Positions 45,980-59,449 are shown, numbered from the stretch's first letter. The stretch is 64,000 bases of DNA from Candidatus Marinacidobacterales bacterium (GCA_965226495.1 OZ245365.1:1152001-1216000), one strand, 5' to 3'. Notes: generated by a model not told the origin, from the letters alone. Program-made: numbers and translations.

Positions 45980-47482
45980 CTAATACCGGTAGTGGTCCGG
46001 CTTGTAGGGCCCCTCGATCGGCACTCCGATGTAGTCGGATTGCTCTTTCGTCAGCTTGGTCAGCTTCACGCCTAACTGTTCCAAGTGTAGGCGAGCGACT
46101 TCCTCGTCGAGCCTCTTCGGAAGCATGTAGACCTTCTTTTCATAAGAGGCCTCGTTCTGATGGAGCTCGAGCTGGGCCAATACCTGATTGGTGAAAGACG
46201 CCGACATGACAAAGCTCGGGTGCCCGGTGGCGCAGCCGAGGTTCAACAGCCGACCCTCGGCAAGAATCATCACGCTATGGCCATCGGGGAACCGCCACTC
46301 GTCGTACTGTGGCTTGATGTTGATGCGCTCGATGCCCGGGACCTTCTTGAGGCCGGCCATGTCGATCTCGTTGTCGAAGTGACCGATGTTGCCGACGATG
46401 GCCTTGTCCTTCATCTTTGCCATGCTATCGGCGGTGATGATGTTGAAGTTGCCCGTGGTGGTGATGAAGATATCGGCTTCCTCAATCACATTCTCGAGTG
46501 TGTTCACTTCATACCCATCCATAGCGGCTTGAAGGGCGCAAATGGGGTCGATCTCGGTAATGATGACGCGGCTGCCTTGCCCGCGCAGCGATTGCGCACA
46601 GCCCTTACCGACCTCGCCGTAACCGAAGACCAGCGCGACCTTGCCTCCGATCATGACGTCGGTGGCGCGGTTGAGTCCGTCGGGGAGCGAGTGCCGGCAT
46701 CCGTACACGTTATCGAATTTACTCTTGGTGACCGAATCATTGACGTTGATGGCGGGGAAGAGCAATTTCCCCTCTTCCATCATCTGATACAGGCGATGCA
46801 CGCCGGTGGTGGTCTCCTCGCTGACTCCGCGGATGCTGGACGCAAGGTTAGTGAAGTGTTTTTTGTCCTTGGCCTGCTCTTCGCTGAGAAGGTTCAGAAT
46901 GACACCCCACTCTTCTGGATCTTTGTCGGGGTCGAAGGAGGGGACGGCGCCAGCTTTCTCGAACTCGACGCCTTTGTGCACCAAGAGGGTGGCATCCCCA
47001 CCGTCATCCACAATGAGATGGGGACCGTTTCCGTCCGTCCACTTGAGCGCTTCGTTAGTGGCCCACCAGTACTCTTCGAGCGTCTCTCCCTTCCAGGCGA
47101 AGACGGGGATGCCCTTGGGGTCGTCCGGCGTGCCATCGGTTTCCGGGCGACCAACGACAACCGCGGCAGCCGCATGGTCCTGAGTCGAAAAGATATTGCA
47201 CGATACCCAGCGAATGTCGGCGCCCAGCTCGGCGAGCGTCTCGATGAGCACGGCGGTCTGAACGGTCATGTGCAGGCTACCCATGATGCGGGCTCCAGCG
47301 AGTGGTTTGTCGGCACCGTAGCGCTTCCGAAGTGCCATCAGTCCGGGCATCTCATGCTCGGCGAGTCTAATTTCCTTCCGTCCAAAATCGGCCAGGCTCA
47401 AGTCCTTGACCTTGTGAGGGACGCGGCCAGCCTTCTCGGCGGCCTTGAAAGCGTGCAATCCCTGAGTTGCCGTTGTGCTCAT
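45980..47482 (-). CDS. ahcY: Adenosylhomocysteinase
   Basis: [58 protein letters not shown]. Confidence 0.98.
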
Positions 47483-47529
47483 GAGCTAATTCCTCCAGAT
47501 TAAAGGGTTCAAGTGGTACGTGTTTATCA

Positions 47530-48534
47530 TCACGCCGTTTCTTTGGCGAGTTCTTCCGTCTTTCGAGAGCGAGTCCGCCCTTTGAGGCCACGCACATCTT
47601 TGTATGCGACGGTAGCAAAGAGGGTCGGACCCATCGCGTCCACATCGGGTGAAAGCGAATGGATGGCGCCGAGGTCGAAACCGGCCGCGGCAAGGTGTTT
47701 CTTCATCGTCTGTTCCGAAAAGCCGAGCCAGACATGTCCCATTTGCTGCTTATACTCCTCCCGCTGGTGGGGGTACATGTCGACGATCATCAACTTGCCT
47801 CCCGGGCGCAACACGCGCCGTGCCTCGCTGAGAACGGCGATCGGAGCCGGCAGGTGATGCAAAACCAACATGAGCACGGCGGCATCGAGCGAAGCGTCCT
47901 GAATGGGGAGCTTCTCCAAAACGCCTTTGCGAAGGAGCACGTTCTTGTGTTTTCGCAAGCGTGCCCGCGCCGCACTCAGCATTTCGGCGGAACCATCGAC
48001 GGCCACTACGCGTTCGACGAATGGGGCTAAGAGTTCCGTCACTTGCCCTGTGCCACAGCCCAAGTCTCCCACTACCCAACTGCGATCGAGGAGCGCCAAG
48101 AGCGAGTGAGAGTAAAAGTGTTCTCCGAAAAGCTCGGTACGGAGTCGGTCCCATTCCCCGGCCGCAGAAGCGAAGAACTCCTGTGATTTCGTCCGCCGCG
48201 CGACCCAGGTGCTCTCGAGCCGCTTGAAATCCTGTATGGCAGCCGGGGTCTCCGCGATTTCTCCTCGGACGATGTTCCACAACTGCGGCAAAGCGGACCC
48301 GTCGCCGCCGTCTGGAAGATAGTAATAATGACTCGTGCCGTCGCGCCGGGACACAACCCAACCCGACTCGCCGAGCGTCTTCAGGTGGCGGCTGACCGTC
48401 GACTGGGGAAGTTGAACCACCGAGCAGAGCTCGCCAACCGTGAGCTCATGTTGTTCGAGCAGGAGCAGGATGCGGCAGCGAGCGGGATCGGTCAGCGCCG
48501 ACAAGTGATCGAGAATCGCTTCGGTGGCTTTCAT
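47530..48534 (-). CDS. sahR: ArsR-HTH + SAM-methyltransferase-fold regulator (SahR-type)
   Basis: ArsR N-terminus, DLGCGTG; directly upstream of ahcY. Confidence 0.85.
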   Translation of the reverse strand: MKATEAILDHLSALTDPARCRILLLLEQHELTVGELCSVVQLPQSTVSRHLKTLGESGWVVSRRDGTSHYYYLPDGGDGSALPQLWNIVRGEIAETPAAIQDFKRLESTWVARRTKSQEFFASAAGEWDRLRTELFGEHFYSHSLLALLDRSWVVGDLGCGTGQVTELLAPFVERVVAVDGSAEMLSAARARLRKHKNVLLRKGVLEKLPIQDASLDAAVLMLVLHHLPAPIAVLSEARRVLRPGGKLMIVDMYPHQREEYKQQMGHVWLGFSEQTMKKHLAAAGFDLGAIHSLSPDVDAMGPTLFATVAYKDVRGLKGRTRSRKTEELAKETA

Positions 48535-50464: not shown

Positions 50465-50540
50465 CGCTGGTCGGTGGGCGCGGCAGCGCTGACCGCTTGA
50501 CTTGTCCCGCCTAAAGCGAGAGACTAGCACCGAACGATAC

Positions 50541-50614
50541 GCCTAGGGGTGGCCGCTCGGCCTGAGAGCAAACCCTCGGAACCTGATCCGGTTGATACCG
50601 GCGTAGGGAACGGC
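50541..50614 (+). ncRNA. TPP (THI-box) riboswitch
   Basis: GGGGTG...CTGAGA...ACCC...GAACCTGATCCGGTTGATACCGGCGTAGGGAA consensus. Confidence 0.92.
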
Positions 50615-50692
50615 AGCTGGCTCTTCTGGCATCATAGAAGAGCGGCAATCTCGAACGAGTCGGTCATCTCTAGCGTCAATCTACAAGGGAGA

Positions 50693-53041
50693 ATGACGAT
50701 GCTCGCGACCCAAATTCACCGGCTCCTTCTCACGATGTTGCTAGTCGCGGTGGTTGCGCCCAAGGCGGGGTCTCAAACGCCGATTCGCGTGCAGGGCCTG
50801 GTCGTCGCCCCTACCGGCGAGGGAGTTGCGGCGGCCCGTATCGACATCGATGGCCGCGAGCCCGTTACCCCCGTTACTACCGACGAGAATGGAAACTTCC
50901 AGCTCTCGCTGCCGTCGGGTGAGTGGGAGCTGCGCGTTTCACATCCCGCCTATCGGCTGTTGCGCCACCGCGTGAAAACTGCGGCTCCAAGTGTCGATCT
51001 CGAGCTCCGCCTCGAATGGGTAAGTTCGGTCGAGGAATCGATTACGGTAATCGGGATTCGGGCCGGAGAAGAAGTTCCGGTGACCAAGCGGAACATCGAT
51101 CGTGAGGAGATCGAAAAACTCAGCTATGGGCAGGATGTTACGGAGCTGCTGGAGCACACGCCGTCGATGAACTGGTACTCGGACTCGGGCATCGGGAGCA
51201 ACTACTCCTACTTCAGCCTGCGCGGTATCCAACAGACGCGCATCAGCATGACTTACGACGGCGCGCCGCTCAACGATCCTGCGGAGCACGCCCTGTTCTT
51301 CAACAACTTCCACGACTTTCTGAGCGGCATCGACAGCATTCAAATCCAACGCGGCGTGGGCACCTCGTCGGTCGGCTCGCCCGCGTACGGGGGCTCGGTG
51401 AACTTCGCGAGCTCGCCACCGGCTCAAGACAACCGCGGCGAGGCCCGGTTGGTACTGGGCTCCTACGATACCGCGCGCGCCTCTATCGGGTACGAGTCCG
51501 GTATCTTCGACAACGGGCTCTACGCCTCGGGACGGTTTTCCTACGCCAAATCAGACGGCTATCGCGAGCGTTCCGGCACCGAGCATCACACCTTCTTTCT
51601 GAACACGGGATGGCAGGGGGAGCGTTCTTCGTTAACGCTGGTCGCGTTCTCGGGCGACGAGAAGACGGAGCTCGCCTATCTCGCCGTCGATCCGGACACC
51701 CTGAGCGAAAACCGGCGCTTCAACCCGCTCACCGAGGAAGACCGCGACAACTTCGGCCAAGACTTCGCACAGCTCAAGTACATGCGCGACCTGGGCAGTG
51801 AGACATTGCTGACCGCGTCGTTCTATTACAACGGCGCCGATGGATGGTTCCAGCTCTGGGACGACCCGGTGGCGCAAAACGACCTGCTGCGATTCGGCAT
51901 CGACCAGGGTTTCTTCGGCAGTATGGTAACCATCAGCACCCGCGCCGACAATCTGACGGCCACTCTGGGTGTGCATTACAACGATTTCAGCGGCGACCAT
52001 TTCCTAGACAGCGATGCCGGCGGTCGGGTCTACAAGAACACTGGTTTCAAGGAGACGGCGAATGCCTTTGGCAAGCTCGAGTACCGGCTTGGCGAAACGC
52101 TGCTGTTCGGCGACCTCCATTGGCGTTGGGCCGGTTTCTCGTACGAAGGCGATGTCGATTTGGGCTCGGTCGACTGGAACTTTCTCGATCCCAAGATCGG
52201 CATCCGGCAAACCCTTGCTCCTGGGCTGAGTCTCTACGGCTCGATCGGCAGGGCACAGCGCGAGCCGGCCCGGCTCGATCTGTTGCTGGGTGAGGACAAC
52301 GCCAGCCTTCCGCACGACCTCGAAGCGGTGAAACGCGAGTCGGTGGTGAACTTCGAGGGCGGGGTCAATCTCAACACGCCCCGGCTCGGCTTGCAGGCCA
52401 ACGTCTACCTGATGGAGTTCCGGAACGAGATCGCTTTGACAGGAGAGCTGTCCGAGGTCGGCCTGCCGCTAAGGCGCAATGTCGATCGCTCGTACCGCCG
52501 TGGCGCCGAAATCGACCTCAAGTGGATGCCGGTGCCGAATTGGTCGGTATTGCACAGCCTCAACGTGAGCCGCAACCGTATCAAAGAATGGATCCAGTTC
52601 TACGACGTCTTTGACGAAGAAGGAGCATGGGCCGGGAGCGAGCCGATCGCTTACCAAAACGTGCGGCCGCTTCTGTCGCCCGAGCTGGTGTTCAATCTCG
52701 GTGTGGAATGGGCACGCCGCGACACCAGCGTTGGCCTCATGGGTCGCTACGTGGCCGCATCCCAGCTCGACAACACCGGGCTCTCCCGATTCCGGACACC
52801 CTCTTTCGCCAACTTGGACTTGCGGGCCTCGCAGACCCTGGGTCGCTGGTGGCGAGGAGCCGATGCGCGCATCACTTTGTTCGTCAACAACCTGTTAGAT
52901 AATCTCGATCAGTTGCCCAGCGGCTACAGTTATCAATTCCTCGTTCGGGATGGCGCCGGCATGGATACGCTCGACGGCATCCCCTTTTACTATCCCTTGG
53001 CCACTCGCAACTTCGTCGTCTCGCTGGAGCTAGGTTTTTAA
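50693..53041 (+). CDS. TonB-dependent receptor, probably for thiamine
   Basis: Carboxypeptidase-regulatory-like N-domain, plug RGI...IQIQRGVGTS, C-terminal Phe; downstream of the TPP riboswitch. Confidence 0.9.
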   Translation: MTMLATQIHRLLLTMLLVAVVAPKAGSQTPIRVQGLVVAPTGEGVAAARIDIDGREPVTPVTTDENGNFQLSLPSGEWELRVSHPAYRLLRHRVKTAAPSVDLELRLEWVSSVEESITVIGIRAGEEVPVTKRNIDREEIEKLSYGQDVTELLEHTPSMNWYSDSGIGSNYSYFSLRGIQQTRISMTYDGAPLNDPAEHALFFNNFHDFLSGIDSIQIQRGVGTSSVGSPAYGGSVNFASSPPAQDNRGEARLVLGSYDTARASIGYESGIFDNGLYASGRFSYAKSDGYRERSGTEHHTFFLNTGWQGERSSLTLVAFSGDEKTELAYLAVDPDTLSENRRFNPLTEEDRDNFGQDFAQLKYMRDLGSETLLTASFYYNGADGWFQLWDDPVAQNDLLRFGIDQGFFGSMVTISTRADNLTATLGVHYNDFSGDHFLDSDAGGRVYKNTGFKETANAFGKLEYRLGETLLFGDLHWRWAGFSYEGDVDLGSVDWNFLDPKIGIRQTLAPGLSLYGSIGRAQREPARLDLLLGEDNASLPHDLEAVKRESVVNFEGGVNLNTPRLGLQANVYLMEFRNEIALTGELSEVGLPLRRNVDRSYRRGAEIDLKWMPVPNWSVLHSLNVSRNRIKEWIQFYDVFDEEGAWAGSEPIAYQNVRPLLSPELVFNLGVEWARRDTSVGLMGRYVAASQLDNTGLSRFRTPSFANLDLRASQTLGRWWRGADARITLFVNNLLDNLDQLPSGYSYQFLVRDGAGMDTLDGIPFYYPLATRNFVVSLELGF

Positions 53042-53059
53042 GTCCGCTACTTCTAAGTC

Positions 53060-53623
53060 GTGTTTTCCCTCGAGCTGGTCGCCGTCGTCCTCACACTGGT
53101 GGCCGTCTACCTGACGGCGCGCCAGATCATCTGGTGCTGGCCGCTCGCCATGGTCAGCGTCGTCCTGTACGCAGCGGTCTTCTACGACGTCCGACTGTAC
53201 GCCGATATGGGGCTACAGGGTCTGTACTTTGGGCTGGCCGCCTACGGCTGGTGGGCGTGGCTGCGCGGCGGTGAGGATCATGGCGAGCTCGAGGTTTCCC
53301 TGACCTCGAGCCGGACGCGGGTGGTGCTGGTGGTGGTCGCGACACTCGGCGGGATTTTGCTGGGTCAGATCCTGATGCGCTTCACCAACGCGTCGCTGCC
53401 ATTCATGGATTCGATGCTCACCTCGTTTAGCATCGCGGCCCAGTGGATGCAGACCCGAAAGCTACTAGAATCCTGGCTGGTGTGGCTTGCCGTTGATGTT
53501 TTTTACGTCGGCATGTTCTTGTACAAGGGGCTCTACCCGACGGCGGGACTGTACGCCGCCTTTCTTGTCCTCGCTGTAATGGGTTTCACCGAGTGGCGAC
53601 GCTCGATGCGAGGCGCGCGATGA
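53060..53623 (+). CDS. pnuC: PnuC-family transporter (PnuT-like)
   Basis: LYADMGLQ, YGWWAW, DS...AQW...RKLLESWLVWLAVD. Confidence 0.9.
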   Translation: MFSLELVAVVLTLVAVYLTARQIIWCWPLAMVSVVLYAAVFYDVRLYADMGLQGLYFGLAAYGWWAWLRGGEDHGELEVSLTSSRTRVVLVVVATLGGILLGQILMRFTNASLPFMDSMLTSFSIAAQWMQTRKLLESWLVWLAVDVFYVGMFLYKGLYPTAGLYAAFLVLAVMGFTEWRRSMRGAR

Positions 53624-54144
53624 TCCGCGTCGTGGTGACCGGCTCCGAATGCACCGGCAAGACGAAGCTCGCCGAGGCGATTGCCACACACTACGAGACC
53701 GTCTGGGTCCCGGAGTTCGCTCGCCAGTTCGTGATCGACAAAGGCGCCGCTCCCGTGTACGAAGATGTCGAGACCATCGCCCGCGGCCAAATCGCCCTAG
53801 AGGACCACAAAGCCGGCGAGGCATCCAGCCTACTTCTTCAAGATACCGATCTACTCAGCACCATCGTCTATAGCCGCCACTACTTCGGTGATTGCCCCCA
53901 CTGGATCGAGGAGGCTTTCGAGAAACGAGCCGCCGGCCTATACCTTCTAGCCGGCATTGACGTTCCCTGGGTACCCGAAGGGGAGCAACGCGACCGCGGA
54001 GACCGGCGCGAAGAGATGCACGAGCTATTCCGGAGCGCCCTGGTCGATCGCCGCCTGACCTATGCCGAGATAGGTGGGGCAAGGGGTGAGCGATTGGAAG
54101 CGGCGGTGTCGCGGATCGACCAGCTTCTTAGTCGAGGCCGCTGA
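53620..54144 (+). CDS. NadR-type P-loop kinase domain protein
   Basis: GSECTGKT, VPEFAR, DTD, DVPWV...RD. Confidence 0.88.
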   Translation: MIRVVVTGSECTGKTKLAEAIATHYETVWVPEFARQFVIDKGAAPVYEDVETIARGQIALEDHKAGEASSLLLQDTDLLSTIVYSRHYFGDCPHWIEEAFEKRAAGLYLLAGIDVPWVPEGEQRDRGDRREEMHELFRSALVDRRLTYAEIGGARGERLEAAVSRIDQLLSRGR

Positions 54145-54279
54145 ATACTTGCTAGGGCCGGACCGGGTCGCTATGCGGTCACTGAGTCCCGCCCAGCGAT
54201 GCTTGGTGTGGTCGAGGCAAAGCTGTCCGCTTAACGGCAGAGGAGTTGCGGGTGTCTCCCGATTACTCCCCAAGAACCC

Positions 54280-54789
54280 CTAACGCACGTCGTCAACTGT
54301 TAGGCGAGGGGCTTTGTCTCCCTCCGGGGCGTGGAAAACTCCTGACACGCTCACCTCAGTGTCGTTGTCCAGCTTCTCAAGCTCGTCCGAGGCCTTATCA
54401 CCCTCCAGGAGGATTAGCATATCCAGACTGGACTCATACCCGACTCGGAGCGCTAGGGCATTCTCCACCCTCTCCAATGTGCCCTTAACGTCAACCTTCA
54501 CTTTGCCCGCTGAGAAGCCAGCGGCCTCGACGGCCTTGGCAATCTGTGCCGGATCGAAAGAGTGGTCCGGTTCGGCAAGGATCACGGTCTCGCCCGTGTC
54601 GAGACTCATCACTTCAGCGTCCTGAACGCCATCCAGGCGTTCCAGAGCCGTCTCGGCCCCGTGTGCTCACAACCCTCACGTCATGCCCTGAATCCAGGTT
54701 CGGGCTTCTTGGACTTGGGCAAAGGCTACTCCCGACAATGCGTGGCAGAGAATAATTGTACTTAGTGATAGGAGCGTTCTCACTTTCAT
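54280..54789 (-). CDS. Secreted HMA-domain (MerP/CopZ-like) selenoprotein with GMT-U-G-L-U motif and C-terminal beta domain, 169 aa
   Basis: ATG 54789 with AGAGGA RBS; MKVRTLLSLSTIILCHALSGVAFAQVQEARTWIQGMT-TGA-GL-TGA-AHGAETALERLDGVQDAEV...IAKAVEAAGF; TGAs at 54676-54678 and 54667-54669; in frame with ORF 54280-54612. Confidence 0.85.
54624..54660 (-). promoter_or_regulatory. Two tandem SECIS-like hairpins
   Basis: GGGGCC-GAGAC-GGCTCT (54644-54660) and GAACGCC-TGGAT-GGCGTTC (54624-54642). Confidence 0.65.
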
Positions 54790-54810
54790 GTCGTTAGGTC
54801 CTCTCTTTTG

Positions 54811-55662
54811 CTAGTGAAGGTATCGAAACCCTGTTACGAACACCCAGTCTTTATTCAACCGATGACCGTTCAACTCCTGGTACACGGGGAGTTGGACAGA
54901 CAACTCCAATATCAAGTTGCGCCGCAAGAAGACTTCAACTCCCGGCGAGACAAAAACGGACTCGCCACCCGTTGCAAGGATCTCCGTCCCGTCACGGTTC
55001 GACCGGCTCTCAATGAAGGAGTTGACTTCCAACACGACGAATAGGTCGTTTCGCTCCGGGTACCGGAGGAGGCGATACATGACGGATGCGTCCAGCTGCA
55101 GAAGGTTCCCCGCCTTGAACCCGCTCTCTTTCGTCGTTGCTGTCCACTGGAAATCGGTGTTGACGAACCAACTAGTCGTTGCGTGGGTAAAAATAAGCCC
55201 CTGAAGAAGGTCCGTCGCTCCGGTCGAGAAACCCTCTTGGCCCCAAGGTACCTTCACTCCCAAGAAACCCGCCAGCCGAGAAAAACCACCAGGCCGGTTT
55301 TTCGCATAGAGCCCGTCGTACTGCACGAAAAACATTGGGTCCGCCAAGCTCGTGTCTCTTGGTTGGCCGCCCGGTGAGCCGCTGACTACGGGTACCATAG
55401 CGACCCACATGAGGTGGCGTGGTAGACCGAAGACGAACGTGTTTTCCCAGGCCATCACCGTGTGGTCTCGGTCACGCTCGGGGCGACCGTCCGTGACATC
55501 TAGCGACGGAGGAGATCGTTTCAGGACTCGCCAATCAGACCGATAGAGAAAGTTGCGGACGAACAAAGTTCTAGCCCCGGGGGAGTTGATTTGCCCAGAT
55601 AGGGGCAAGTGCTGAAGCAACAAAACGGACGCCAGGACAAATCGGAGACAGATTAGTCGCAC
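54811..55662 (-). CDS. Putative outer-membrane beta-barrel transporter (MetA-pathway/COG4313-like)
   Basis: Signal peptide, amphipathic strands, GVKVPWG, GGESVFVSPG, VQLPVYQELNG, GFRY near the C-terminus. Confidence 0.7.
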   Translation of the reverse strand: MRLICLRFVLASVLLLQHLPLSGQINSPGARTLFVRNFLYRSDWRVLKRSPPSLDVTDGRPERDRDHTVMAWENTFVFGLPRHLMWVAMVPVVSGSPGGQPRDTSLADPMFFVQYDGLYAKNRPGGFSRLAGFLGVKVPWGQEGFSTGATDLLQGLIFTHATTSWFVNTDFQWTATTKESGFKAGNLLQLDASVMYRLLRYPERNDLFVVLEVNSFIESRSNRDGTEILATGGESVFVSPGVEVFLRRNLILELSVQLPVYQELNGHRLNKDWVFVTGFRYLH

Positions 55663-55835
55663 GGCGTAAGTCTAGTTACCCGGCCAGAGGTTACCCAAAC
55701 AACACCTACCCTCAGGGTTTCGCAACTCGCAAGCCGAGCGCCCAGCTTCCACGTGTGCATGGATGCGCGATTCGGCAGCGTCGGCGTCACACCGAAGCCG
55801 GCGGCGACGGCTCCGAAACCGCTCCATTTGGACAT
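55653..55835 (-). pseudogene. Possible MerT-like N-terminal remnant
   Basis: Strong RBS (GAGGAG) right after the merR stop; MSKWSGFGAVAAGFG resembles MerT TM1 but diverges before the CC motif. Confidence 0.35.
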
Positions 55836-55844
55836 GACATCTCC

Positions 55845-56463
55845 TCAGGCTTTCTCGTCGGATACGTCGGCAATCACCGGGCATCTCGAACCCTGGTCAA
55901 TCGCCTGAGCGCATTGGTCCCGGTAGTTAGACATTTGTCGATGGAAGCGCTTCATTTCTTTACCCTGCTGGGCGATCTCGACTATTTTCTTGTCGAGGAT
56001 GCCCAACACGCGACGGCAGCTCCCGGGGTTGTCCGGCCGGAGGCCCAGGAGTACCGAGATCTCGTCGAGAGCGAAACCAAAACCCTGCGCGCGTTTGATG
56101 AAACTCAGACGCTGCTCAGCTTTGGGCCCATAAAGGCGGAGAGCCTGATCTGGAACGCCGCTTCATTTCTTTACCCTGCTGGGCGATCTCGACTATTTTC
56201 TTGTCGAGGATGCCCAACACGCGAAGCTCCCGGGGTTGTCCGGCCGGAGGCCCAGGAGTACCGAGATCTCGTCCGAAACCAAAACCCTGCGCGCGTTTGA
56301 TGAAACTCAGACGCTGCTCAGCTTTGGGCCCATAAAGGCGGTAGCCTGATCTGGAACGCCGGCTGGGTTTGAGAATGCCGCGCCGCTCGTAGTACCGGAG
56401 GGTTTCGCGGTTCACACCGGCCCGCAGAGCTAATTCACCGATGAGAAGCGAGTCGTTCTTCAT
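55845..56463 (-). CDS. MerR-family heavy-metal-responsive regulator, disrupted by an approximately 211-bp imperfect duplication
   Basis: IGELALRAGVNRETLRYYERRGIL...SGYRLY...FIKRAQGFGFALDEI...SCRRV...DQCAQAIDQGSRCPVI*; three Cys ligands. Confidence 0.88.
55948..56361. repeat. Imperfect tandem duplication inside merR
   Basis: 55948-56160 repeated at 56159-56361 with small deletions. Confidence 0.85.
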
Positions 56464-56685: not shown

Positions 56686-58197
56686 CTAGGCGCCGCTGGG
56701 TACCTGCAATTCCGGCATCGGTGCAGTGTGAAACAAGCGCCGGCAGGGCTTCGCTATCCACCTGGCCACCGTCGTCGCCCGGTTCACACGGGCACTGTCC
56801 GTCGCAATCCCTGTGCTGGCGTACATTTGCCGGTAGAGCTTGGAAAGCAAGACGAAGGCGAGACGTGCGCGCAACGTTGGAGTACATCGAGAGCGCTTCC
56901 AGACTGGGCCCAAGCTATAGAAACGATCCCAGACCGACTGCGTGCGCGACCTGATCTCCTCGGCCGACAGCACTGGATGGTCGCTGTAGATTTTCGGCCG
57001 AAGATTTTGAGGAATCAACCAGTGGCGGGTCAATGGGATACCCCCAATGCGCGTCGGGTCATCCTTCATCGAAGCTTCCCAATTGTTGAAATCTACCGTC
57101 CCCGGGAACGGGGTCATCATCACGAACTGCGCAAAAGTCAGATCGGCCTCCTGCGCGAGGGCCGCGGTAGCGTCGAAGGTCTCCGCGCGGTCCGTGGGCA
57201 GACCAAAGATGAACGAGCCCAAGACGTGCACTCCGTGCTTACGAAACTTGCGAAGCTGCAGCACTAAGTCTGCGCCCGAGGTGTTGAAATTCTTGTAGAC
57301 CGCTTTCAGCCCTTCGGCAGTAACAGACTCGACTCCGACGAGAGCTCCTTTGATGTTGGCTTTGCGCATGGCATCCAGAAAATCGGGATCGTCGGCGACT
57401 TCCATCGTGATCTGAGTAAAGAACACCATATTGGCGGGCAACTTGGCCATTTGCGCCATCAACTGGAACCGATCTTCGCGTATTGATTTGAGCTCTTGGA
57501 GCCGGTGCACATCGTTGCGACTTTCGGCAAGCCTCAAGTCCTCTAACGTAACCGGGTAGAAATTGTCGTCCGCCAGGGCGATAAATCGAAATCCGAGCCG
57601 TCGGAGCTCGACAATTTCTTCGATGACGGCGTCGGACGGGCGCTGGCGGGGTTTTTGGCCGTCCGTGCGCCAGACGGAGCAAAAAGAGCAATGCTTGGGG
57701 CATCCGCGCACCGTTTGAACGGAGGCCCACATATAGCTGTTGGGAGGAATCAGTTCCCAACGGGCGGGCTTGAACTGGTCGGCCTCGATCTTTCCCGCGT
57801 CGTACAATCTTTCGGGCTTTCCTTTCGCGCAGTCGGCCAGGACGGTGGCCCAAACGACGTCCCCGTCGCCCTTGACGACGCCGTTTGCGCCGCCCAAATC
57901 GAATGCTTCCTCGGGGTAAAGCGTGGCGTGAATGCCTCCATAGATCACATGGGCCCCTCGCTCCTGCGCCATGCGGCCGACCTCGTACCCGCGCAGCGCG
58001 TTGCCGGTATGGATGCTGATGCCGACCACATCGCCGTGCTGAATGTCGGAGGGGTCGATTTGCTCTAGCGTTTCGTCGACAATCACCGGGTCTCCGTACT
58101 CTCGGGGGGTCGCGCCGGCAAGTACGAAGAGCCATCGGGGGGTTATAACGCCTATTCCAAAGGAGATATGGCTGGGGTTGACTAGATGCACTCTCAT
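56686..58197 (-). CDS. B12-binding-domain radical SAM protein
   Basis: GGIHATLYP, RGCPKHCSFC, DDNF, GVES, GSFIFG, TPFPGT. Confidence 0.92.
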   Translation of the reverse strand: MRVHLVNPSHISFGIGVITPRWLFVLAGATPREYGDPVIVDETLEQIDPSDIQHGDVVGISIHTGNALRGYEVGRMAQERGAHVIYGGIHATLYPEEAFDLGGANGVVKGDGDVVWATVLADCAKGKPERLYDAGKIEADQFKPARWELIPPNSYMWASVQTVRGCPKHCSFCSVWRTDGQKPRQRPSDAVIEEIVELRRLGFRFIALADDNFYPVTLEDLRLAESRNDVHRLQELKSIREDRFQLMAQMAKLPANMVFFTQITMEVADDPDFLDAMRKANIKGALVGVESVTAEGLKAVYKNFNTSGADLVLQLRKFRKHGVHVLGSFIFGLPTDRAETFDATAALAQEADLTFAQFVMMTPFPGTVDFNNWEASMKDDPTRIGGIPLTRHWLIPQNLRPKIYSDHPVLSAEEIRSRTQSVWDRFYSLGPVWKRSRCTPTLRARLAFVLLSKLYRQMYASTGIATDSARVNRATTVARWIAKPCRRLFHTAPMPELQVPSGA

Positions 58198-58422
58198 TCA
58201 GATTTCACTCGTATCCTCCTGGGGGCTGCTGGCGCCTCCGACCGCCCGTATGTTTCGAATCGGACGAACCTGAGCGCCTAGTCTATCAATTTCAGGCTGT
58301 GAATGCGTCTTTTTCTTCATCGCGGGATCCGCGGCACTTTACCCTGAATCCTATCTGGAGCGCTAGATGTGAAGGCGATGAATTCCGAGCCGGTTGGCGA
58401 GAAAGGGTACCAAGGGAATTGT

Positions 58423-59307
58423 CTACTCGTTGTAGGCAGGCGCCTGCTTAACCTGTTCGAAGCGCGCCAGTTCGTGCTCGATCCAAAGCTCCGCACCGGT
58501 CTCCTCGAGGAACTTCTCGATACGCTCCATCGAAGCGAGAGTCGCTTCCGCGTCGAAGTTGAACGCGGGGACGCGCCGCTCCCGGCGATTGAGCTGGAAG
58601 ATAAATAGATCGCCGGATAGGACGACAGGCCCTGTTTTTTCGAGGTCGACGAAAAGGACCTGATGGCCGGGAGTGTGGCCGGGTGCCGAGAGGATCCGGA
58701 CGCGTCCATCGCCGAAGACGTCGTGCTCGCCGTCGAGGATCTGGCGGTCGGCGTCGTGCAGGCCTTGGTAGGTTGTGGGATCAAAACCAACTACTGAAAC
58801 TTCATCAGCGAAGGCGGCATCGTATTCCGCTCGTTGGATGAGGAGCGTCGCGCCTTCGATCTCGTTCGCGACCCCGACGTGGTCGGGGTGCATGTGGGAG
58901 AACGCCATGTAGTCGACCGAGGTGTAATCGAGGCCGATCTCGGCGAGCTGCTCTCCGAGAGTTCTGTCGAGACGCATCTGCATTCCCCCCGCGTCCTGCC
59001 AGCTCTCCGCGTCGGCGATTTCCGAAGCAAGGCCGCCATCCCAGAGCAGCCGGCCTCGCTCGTGCTCGATGACGTAGCACGGCACGACGAGCTCGCGCAC
59101 GTCGGTTTCCGCGCTCGTGAAGCCGAAGTCGAGCGCGTCGAACGTCTCGTCATCGAAGCGCATGCGCCCGCAGTCGAAAACGTAGAGCTTCAGGGACGCG
59201 GGTCCCTCGGTTTCAGTTTGGGTTTCGGCGGCCGGTTCTCGCTCGGTGTCGGCAGCGCAACTCGCAAGCGCGAGCACCAGCGATAGGGATAGCGTCGATA
59301 ATCGCAT
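58423..59307 (-). CDS. N-acyl homoserine lactonase-family MBL lipoprotein
   Basis: Lipobox LASC, SHMHPDHVG, PGHTPGH, SGD. Confidence 0.85.
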   Translation of the reverse strand: MRLSTLSLSLVLALASCAADTEREPAAETQTETEGPASLKLYVFDCGRMRFDDETFDALDFGFTSAETDVRELVVPCYVIEHERGRLLWDGGLASEIADAESWQDAGGMQMRLDRTLGEQLAEIGLDYTSVDYMAFSHMHPDHVGVANEIEGATLLIQRAEYDAAFADEVSVVGFDPTTYQGLHDADRQILDGEHDVFGDGRVRILSAPGHTPGHQVLFVDLEKTGPVVLSGDLFIFQLNRRERRVPAFNFDAEATLASMERIEKFLEETGAELWIEHELARFEQVKQAPAYNE

Positions 59308-59449
59308 CTTGAGCGGCATTTTAAACCTCAAGTGTTCGAGCGCGGCCAATTTCTTTTGTATCAACAACATACGGTCTCGAGAAAAGGCTGGTGCGTTGCA
59401 AAAATTCAAGTAATCCATTTAATTGCAATAGGTTACAAGCCATCGAAAC

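Follow-up and report, generated by a model that had tools for sequence, protein, structure and literature searches.

Does a reading frame that is broken twice by TGA, at codons spaced 9 nt apart, encode one complete protein or the remains of one? The question is raised by positions 54280 to 54789 of a 64,000-nt stretch of DNA (hereafter the window, meaning the whole stretch that was analysed) from Candidatus Marinacidobacterales bacterium (GCA_965226495.1 OZ245365.1:1152001-1216000). An initial annotation, made from the sequence alone, had placed here a hidden metal chaperone with an HMA domain and two selenocysteine (Sec) residues in its metal-binding loop. We find that the gene likely encodes a true double-selenocysteine protein, as judged from its sequence, and that it belongs to a family of secreted proteins in which the HMA domain is followed by an OB-like domain. 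Somewhat less firmly, we regard the product as probably a periplasmic soft-metal binder that is coupled to an outer-membrane barrel; the terms "metal chaperone" and "bis-selenolate" are inferred from fold, motif, and gene context.

Transcribed from the minus strand, the gene starts with the ATG at 54789-54787. Translation of 54789..54280 bore out the ribosome-binding site, the start codon, the signal peptide ending in AFA and the in-frame reading described in the initial annotation. Residues 1-24 (MKVRTLLSLSTIILCHALSGVAFA) show, by eye, neither a twin-arginine motif nor a canonical lipobox, and the homologs have hydrophobic leaders of a comparable kind. A lipoprotein reading, based on I-I-L-C at residues 12-15, was considered and rejected, as this is not a canonical lipobox judging from the sequence. 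Around the two codons in question the gene reads ...IQGMT-TGA-GGG-TTG-TGA-GCACACGGG..., and with TGA translated as U the product has 169 residues, MKVRTLLSLSTIILCHALSGVAFA / QVQEARTWIQGMT-U-GL-U-AHGAETALERLDGV ... VDDVR, so that the motif in the HMA domain is G-M-T-U38-G-L-U41. Apart from the two TGAs, the first in-frame stop is the TAG at 54282-54280, and the 128 codons 3' of the second TGA are intact and conserved. The Pfam HMA model (PF00403) matches residues 32-92 over threshold (E 2.6e-11; 44.2 bits against a gathering cut-off of 24.8), and because this match spans the motif region, both TGAs coincide exactly with the Cys pair of GMxCxxC, as had been claimed. The gene is also missed by gene callers, as the initial annotation supposed: the standard list of open reading frames (ORFs) contains just a 110-codon piece, 54612..54280, and the public protein collection holds just P0002, a 109-aa protein beginning at M61. 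A scan for promoters and terminators gave nothing useful. The coordinates of all features of the locus are collected in Table 1.

The source genome, a single contig of 6.34 Mb, has the machinery to decode UGA as Sec. Profile searches identified selA (570 bits), selB (378 bits) and selD (333 bits) as well as a tRNA-Sec (70.9 bits, anticodon TCA), all above curated cut-offs, and ARAGORN also calls a tRNA-SeC with anticodon TCA. The selD gene (G000:C1:5697778-5698710) itself holds one in-frame TGA, making SelD itself a selenoprotein. Global recoding of TGA was considered and rejected because TGA serves as a normal stop elsewhere in the window, where it is the commonest ordinary stop and terminates 20 of the 43 ORFs of at least 250 aa.

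Homologs were collected by six-frame searches of 55 genomes of the order and 401 genomes of the class, and all fetched two-domain matches were read; the 401-genome tallies, in this search and in the NF041115 search described later, include unpublished genomes (G003, G383, G423, G446, and G541), on which no claim rests. TGA is present at both Cys positions (UxxU) in seven sequences, namely the window gene (G000), those of G050, G054, G127, G229, and G344, and that of metagenome contig L039, whose protein is 39% identical to the window protein. Thirteen further two-domain genes have TGA at the first position (UxxC; GMD-U-x-x-C-A-H), thirteen two-domain genes and one HMA-only gene have Cys at both (CxxC), and one related copy, in G004, is decayed. 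The relatives align over their full length, with leader and C-terminal domain included, and both TGAs align with the CxxC of the 13 Cys-form two-domain homologs, with conserved sequence on either side. The seven UxxU sequences are spread over at least five family labels, and the protein 3' of their TGAs is conserved. The TGA pair is not due to chance: reading through it yields a match over the whole domain, and both TGAs recur in seven independent sequences. In G127, the UxxU HMA+OB frame (G127:C3:957654 onward) runs for more than 550 codons, into a BNR-type domain of about 400 aa.

Other genomes show the same truncation in their protein calls. A word-indexed search identified seven close public relatives (74-100% identity; 421 candidates), all seven of which are calls of 106-127 aa that start past the motif; therefore, these genes are truncated at the same place. 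The call P0004 starts with M-C-A-H-G, at the Leu codon between the two positions and with Cys at the second, and this relative would fit a U-x-x-C form, judged from the protein call alone. A locus search with the single window protein returned the G004 contig only, and among metagenome contigs two loci, one of which ends before the motif. G004 is the nearest species-level relative (Acidobacteriota, Vicinamibacteria), and its copy (G004:C3:1356316-1356801; 82% identical) has lost 1 nt just past the ATG, reads TAA where the second TGA would stand, and is preceded by a barrel gene reduced to its last 12 codons, while the 128 codons 3' of the lesions are still 82% identical. The TAA at the second position is thus explained by decay of this copy. 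Another mis-called MerP-like gene containing Sec was noted on G007:C508 (L035): after a MerR gene and a gene for a MerT-HMA fusion (CxxC) comes a small gene for a secreted HMA protein that has GMT-U-TS-C but lacks an OB domain.

In the maximum likelihood tree (26 rows, with five truncated database proteins left out), the family forms two clades with support of 100/99, one containing nine UxxC sequences and one CxxC sequence, and the other containing all seven UxxU sequences and nine CxxC sequences. The UxxU state takes three changes on this tree, and a single origin of UxxU would still be compatible with it.

The TGAs were also found in independent sequencing runs. The stretch 54100-55700 is present in 20 listed runs from 10 studies, among them three metatranscriptomes (one labelled as a sponge metagenome), and four of the 24 listed runs (X3, X6, X17, and X19) were compared with the window, all as contigs. 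In the DNA run X3, one contig spans the whole stretch, and in the RNA run X17 a 548-nt contig covers 54252-54808 and with it the entire gene; both are unchanged at both TGAs. None of the three outcomes that the initial annotation had set beforehand as refuting was observed, namely TGC or TGT in the reads, a genome lacking Sec machinery, or TGAs that recur in no other genome and have decaying flanks. RNA run X19 covers 54280-54650. RNA contigs from two studies cover the gene, as contigs that indicate its presence and are not proof of transcription; they end at 55008, short of the whole barrel gene, and are uninformative on an operon. An A>G change at 54432 and a 9-nt deletion at 54433 are common to all four runs and constitute the sole difference in X3, X17, and X19. 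Because the runs share the common RVPSLD form seen in P0003, it is the window that carries a three-codon in-frame insertion (54433-54441, minus strand; RV-GYE-SSLD), in a loop of the OB-like domain where the confidence of the structure model dips to 73. In run X6, a contig spanning the TGAs represents a second strain, which differs from the window at 54622, 54640, 54652, and 54658; none of the differences listed is at the TGAs.

The predicted structure confirms the complete HMA fold and the extra beta domain of the initial annotation. An AlphaFold2 model based on a 31-row alignment has a mean pLDDT of 92.2 and a pTM of 0.84, and shows the beta-alpha-beta-beta-alpha-beta order by which the HMA fold is recognized, with the metal loop ahead of helix 1 and the last strand continuing into the second domain. 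In Foldseek searches of the PDB, the first domain matches HMA7, CopZ, ATP7B, and MerP (E 2e-5 to 2e-3). For the second domain, neither Pfam nor NCBIfam gives a match, and none of its sequence relatives has a solved structure; its five strands, with a helix between strands 3 and 4, match the OB topology in the model, and its Foldseek matches, to AspRS/AsnRS N-domains, Stn1-Ten1, RPA, and PriB, are weak (E about 2e-3; TM 0.32-0.38 on query length). Only glycines are nearly invariant in this domain, without conserved Met, His, or Cys, and it is therefore unlikely to be a second metal site.

An outer-membrane barrel gene immediately precedes the HMA+OB gene (Table 1) and matches PF13557 over threshold (26.9 bits; gathering cut-off 22), as does its ortholog in G344 (PF13557, 7.4e-11). 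When the barrel was compared by blastp with 18 ORFs from 17 related loci, nine matched at E < 1e-3 and 11 at E < 0.01, and every matching ORF is directly upstream of an HMA+OB gene. These matches indicate that the gene pair is conserved down to about 25% identity. A complex prediction, run without alignments on barrel residues 25-283 and the OB part of P0002 (28-109), gave a score of 0.07 (mark, 0.34) and weighs neither way.

The wider surroundings of the pair vary among genomes. In G113, the pair is located between a CusAB-like RND pump and genes for MerR, MerT, and a P-type ATPase, and its neighbours in G041 include a multicopper oxidase gene together with two further HMA genes. The order in G054 is CsoR-family repressor, barrel, UxxU gene, and amidohydrolase. 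NHL-repeat propeller genes adjoin the family in L039, G127 (directly upstream), G229, and G041, and amidohydrolase and NHL-propeller genes are the commonest further neighbours.

Several observations weigh against a role of the pair in metal handling, or against its importance. The decay of the G004 copy implies that the module is dispensable and can be lost. In the window, neither a metal transporter nor a metal sensor is located beside the pair; the MerR-family gene about 450 nt upstream of the barrel (56116-56463, minus strand) encodes zero Cys, its matches to ZntR, MerR, and CueR are confined to the helix-turn-helix (HTH) at residues 7-64, and it may be a MerR relative unconnected with metals or a metal sensor in decay. 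In G054, the CsoR-family repressor (L076 7654-7974) reads Cys...Asn-x3-Cys, and its best NCBIfam match, RicR, is far under cut-off. It has Asn where copper-sensing CsoR has His (Cys...His-x3-Cys), so that its effector need not be copper, and in this it resembles persulfide sensors. The lack of metal genes beside the window pair, the form of this repressor, and the non-metal character of the commonest further neighbours would suit a redox or chalcogen-handling protein, in which the UxxU motif cycles between diselenide and selenols or carries sulfur or selenium species, and the HMA domain is a scaffold only; so would the statement that most catalogued bacterial selenoproteins are redox proteins, made in a published survey (PMC1976440). 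Such a protein would, however, have to be reconciled with the HMA family match and its GMT-x-x-x motif in the canonical loop, with the metal-resistance genes around the pair in G113 and G041, and with the fact that every NCBIfam match to the family is a metal chaperone, transporter, or reductase domain. We therefore consider this alternative unlikely and a soft-metal binder the better reading.

Other genes around the locus in the window were noted as well. On the plus strand at 50535-54144, a TPP riboswitch (66.8 bits) is followed by genes for a TonB-dependent receptor (830 aa), a PnuC-type transporter (187 aa), and an AAA_28 protein (183 aa), which looks like a thiamine-uptake operon with an outer-membrane receptor. 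On the minus strand, an S-adenosylhomocysteine hydrolase gene adjoins one for a fusion of an ArsR-type HTH with an S-adenosylmethionine (SAM)-dependent methyltransferase (45980-48534), and a gene for a B12-binding radical SAM protein (503 aa) adjoins one for a metallo-beta-lactamase-fold protein, AHL-lactonase-like, with matches under their cut-offs (56686-59418).

If both UGAs are decoded, signals for Sec insertion would be expected nearby, and two consecutive hairpins can form in the UxxU genes, which are conserved in place and not in sequence. By a published rule, the apical loop of a bacterial Sec insertion sequence (SECIS) lies 16-37 nt past the UGA (PMC10778597; rule as given there), and within this range hairpin 1 of the window gene fits only the first TGA (22 nt) and hairpin 2 only the second (31 nt). 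Each hairpin has a predicted energy of -12.4 kcal/mol, and hairpin 2 is matched by 1% of synonymous shuffles. In G127, L039, G229, and G344, hairpin 1 is in the same place with another sequence (GGGGUC/GGCCCU, GGGGCC/GGCCCU, GGGAUC/GAUCCC), and in hairpin 2 three pairs are changed on both sides among the UxxU genes, for instance G-C against C-G and A-U against G-C. In the seven-row UxxU alignment, pairing holds in 76.9% of cells, compared with no more than 53.8% when the partners are slid, and four pairs are changed on both sides, giving a covariation score of 0.260 against 0.149 for shuffled alignments, which none of 500 shuffles reached. This covariation rests on seven related sequences, with hairpin 1 out of register in G229, G344, G050, and G054.

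The number of hairpins was then compared among the three motif states by taking the best single hairpin at 10-40 nt and at 30-66 nt from the first U/C codon, with 200 synonymous shuffles and a cut-off of -6 kcal/mol. A hairpin was found in the first and second windows, respectively, of 7/7 and 5/7 UxxU genes (the misses being G050 and G054), 13/13 and 0/13 UxxC genes, and 3/13 and 2/13 CxxC genes. The UxxC genes have a hairpin of 6 bp, CCACGC-CGUGM-GCGUGG, which starts 11 nt past the UGA and has its loop 17 nt past it, and synonymous sites in its codons are frozen (GCC 10/11, CAC 12/12, GCC 11/11, GTG 12/12, and GTG 12/12, in 12 UxxC genes with one near-copy left out), whereas conserved residues elsewhere use the majority codon in about half of the genes. 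No such freezing was seen in a control of eight CxxC genes. The loop distances suggest that each UGA has a hairpin of its own in five of the seven UxxU genes, and in the window gene the two hairpins would be candidate SECIS elements for their respective UGAs. No description of tandem bacterial SECIS elements for neighbouring UGAs was found in the open-access literature and bioRxiv.

This arrangement has its own counter-evidence. Hairpin 1 of the window gene is equalled by 7% of synonymous shuffles, and both the G004 copy and the second strain in X6 have AAA instead of AGA in its loop. In G050 and G054, the second hairpin (AACGUC-UGGAU-GACGUU) is 9 nt further upstream, across the window border of the test; in this other register, one hairpin is within 16-37 nt of both TGAs (31 and 22 nt) and the other fits neither, so that a separate hairpin for each UGA is not the general rule. 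The numbers of hairpins and of UGAs are also not independent, because UxxU and UxxC genes are in different clades; a better control is given by the CxxC genes within the UxxU clade. Folded as a whole, the 72-nt region has no clear energy advantage over synonymous shuffles (mean z of -0.90 for UxxU, -0.27 for UxxC, and -0.28 for CxxC); as a discriminator of Sec and Cys genes, the whole-region energy did not separate the groups and was dropped in favour of the position-specific hairpin test.

UGAs so close together are demanding for SelB, and hairpin 1 begins 5 nt past the second TGA. It is thus conceivable that decoding is partial, with one UGA, likeliest the second, mostly acting as a stop or being decoded by a near-cognate tRNA, in which case a peptide of 37-40 residues or a single-Sec protein would predominate and the full-length double-Sec form would be rare. 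The variable second position in close relatives (TAA in G004, and Cys in the P0004 relative by its protein call only) fits with this. However, the second TGA is kept in all seven UxxU sequences across their family labels with the downstream protein conserved, the second hairpin past it shows compensatory changes, and the codons that follow are intact, making partial decoding quite improbable and full decoding of both UGAs the preferred reading. A pseudogene or sequencing error, that is, two nonsense changes in a former CxxC gene, could draw on the truncated gene calls and the true decay of the G004 copy but is most improbable given the unchanged TGAs in contigs of other runs, RNA included, the lack of a frameshift or other stop, the six further UxxU genes, the Sec machinery, and the frozen synonymous sites and hairpins that are confined to TGA-bearing genes.

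Table 1. Features of the double-TGA locus, in coordinates of the window.
Feature	Coordinates	Strand	Remarks
Secreted HMA+OB gene, complete, probable double selenoprotein	54280..54789	minus	169 codons + TAG; TGA as Sec at codons 38 and 41; from translation, Pfam, and structure model
Ribosome-binding site GAGAGGA	54799..54805	minus	9 nt 5' of ATG; read from sequence
Sec-type signal peptide, 24 residues	54718..54789	minus	A-F-A then Q25; cleavage predicted by the AxA rule
TGA no. 1, in frame (Sec38)	54676..54678	minus	First Cys position of GMxCxxC; TGA in 7 UxxU + 13 UxxC two-domain homologs
TGA no. 2, in frame (Sec41)	54667..54669	minus	Second Cys position; TGA in 6 other sequences; TAA in decayed G004 copy
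HMA domain, residues 32-92	54514..54696	minus	beta-alpha-beta-beta-alpha-beta, ferredoxin-like; Pfam, Foldseek
C-terminal OB-like domain, residues 93-169	54283..54513	minus	Five strands, one helix between strands 3 and 4; structure model, Foldseek
Hairpin 1, CGGGGCCG-AGA-CGGCUCUG, 8 bp	54643..54661	minus	Loop 22 nt past TGA1, 13 nt past TGA2; candidate SECIS for TGA1
Hairpin 2, GAACGCC-UGGAU-GGCGUUC, 7 bp	54624..54642	minus	Loop 31 nt past TGA2, 40 nt past TGA1; candidate SECIS for TGA2
Outer-membrane barrel gene, Phenol_MetA_deg type (PF13557), 283 aa	54811..55662	minus	21 nt upstream of HMA+OB gene; conserved partner

Taken together, we infer Sec insertion, metal identity, transport direction, barrel contact, and the assignment of hairpins to UGAs within the following scheme. 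Both UGAs would be read by SelB and Sec-tRNA(Sec), guided by the coding-sequence hairpins just downstream, and the 24-residue signal peptide would target the product to the periplasm through the Sec translocon. In this compartment, the HMA domain would present the selenolates U38 and U41 where MerP and CopZ use two thiolates, and with two selenolates it would be expected to bind a soft metal (Cu(I), Hg(II), or Ag(I)), its affinity probably being higher, and persisting to lower pH, than that of the Cys form. The OB-like domain and the upstream barrel suggest a two-gene envelope module, which may capture soft metals in the periplasm and hand them over to or from an outer-membrane channel.

The family appears to be far larger than its annotation. 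A profile of the OB domain (26 rows), searched against 1.84 billion representatives of clusters at 50% identity, matched 635 proteins at E <= 1e-3, of which 52 reach E <= 1e-10. Among the best 150 of these 635, only 21 are full-length, with leader and CxxC (median 178 aa), and three are unrelated long proteins. The other 126 are short (median 124.5 aa) and without leader and motif, although some may be contig-end fragments; nine of the 126 begin just before the second Cys, and 49 begin with [MVL][RSGAE][VG], the place of the frozen GTG codons in the UxxC hairpin, if their N-terminal residues are a guide. We tentatively propose, though the odds are somewhat against so broad a claim, that the periplasmic HMA+OB selenoproteins form a large family with next to no annotation (its OB domain is matched by at least 635 clusters at 50% identity, the best being mostly N-terminal stumps), which together with a dedicated barrel constitutes an undescribed two-gene soft-metal envelope system of Acidobacteriota, including sponge-associated ones, whose double-Sec members would use tandem SECIS elements, one per UGA.

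The public calls of this family are systematically wrong, being stumps of 106-140 aa without signal peptide and metal site that no NCBIfam model rescues, and one profile combined with a TGA rule would correct hundreds of clusters. The family also provides a natural series of CxxC, UxxC, and UxxU forms on one scaffold, in which the effect of selenolates on Cu(I), Hg(II), and Ag(I) affinity, on pH dependence, and on resistance to oxidation in an oxidising compartment can be tested. Its adjacent UGAs and two hairpins offer a compact natural system for how SelB handles closely spaced Sec codons, and the conserved pairing with a barrel points to an unstudied route of soft metals across the envelope of Acidobacteriota.

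The double-Sec HMA protein is itself a kind that is already catalogued, as predictions. NF041115, "UxxU_metal_bind" metal-binding (seleno)protein, has the same HMA fold with both metal-site Cys replaced by Sec and is the best NCBIfam match of the window protein (E 1.1e-11), and NCBIfam also holds NF045683, a "MerT/CopZ fusion-like heavy metal transport selenoprotein". UxxU HMA selenoproteins are listed in tables of two papers (PMC9312934; PMC13188914), which credit Zhang & Gladyshev 2007, and the same tables include Sec at the first Cys position of ATPase HMA domains; the UxxU HMA family is not named in the main text of PMC1976440. We have therefore narrowed the claim of novelty, which the initial annotation had left unconfirmed: it does not extend to the UxxU HMA class, and it stands for the secreted HMA+OB family, on whose 31 members no NCBIfam model reaches its cut-off. 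At 44.7 bits, the window protein fails the equivalog cut-off of NF041115 (95 bits), and the best of the 31 members (E 2e-13) is also below it. No protein over this cut-off was found in the source genome or in 401 sampled genomes of the phylum. The NF041115 family is a single domain of 74 positions, to which the window protein adds a signal peptide, an OB-like domain, and a barrel partner. The family, its architecture, its partner, and its recoding layout are not known to have been described, and no description of a secreted HMA+OB selenoprotein or of its barrel partner was found in the open-access literature and bioRxiv.

MerP (TIGR02052), the periplasmic Hg(II)-binding protein of mer operons, likewise combines a signal peptide with an HMA domain containing GMTCxxC, and its structures are among the Foldseek matches (1osd, 1afi). 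The window protein differs in having Sec for Cys and an extra domain, and it scores 33.7 bits against a cut-off of 92.55; neither MerT nor MerA is encoded among the window ORFs scanned at 46-64 kb. Whereas MerP is partnered by the inner-membrane MerT, the partner of the window protein is an outer-membrane barrel. Barrels of the Phenol_MetA_deg / COG4313 type are described as channels for hydrophobic compounds, and a link between Phenol_MetA_deg barrels and HMA proteins was not found in the same literature.

Another likeness is to CusF, a periplasmic Cu(I)/Ag(I) chaperone that is a small OB-type barrel, binds metal via Met, His, and Trp, and works with an envelope export system. Both would be periplasmic soft-metal carriers with an OB-like barrel, but the OB-like domain of the window protein lacks the conserved residues for such a site, and CusF is not among the Foldseek matches listed. 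HMA7, CopZ, and ATP7B share the fold and the loop motif and are the best structural matches. CopZ (NF033795, NF033794, and NF047957) is small and cytoplasmic, and the window protein, with its signal peptide, reaches 32-44 bits against cut-offs of 85-95. More generally, HMA domains of the CopZ and ATPase type are cytoplasmic and either single-domain or fused to a pump, whereas the window protein is predicted to be secreted, with two domains and two Sec residues.

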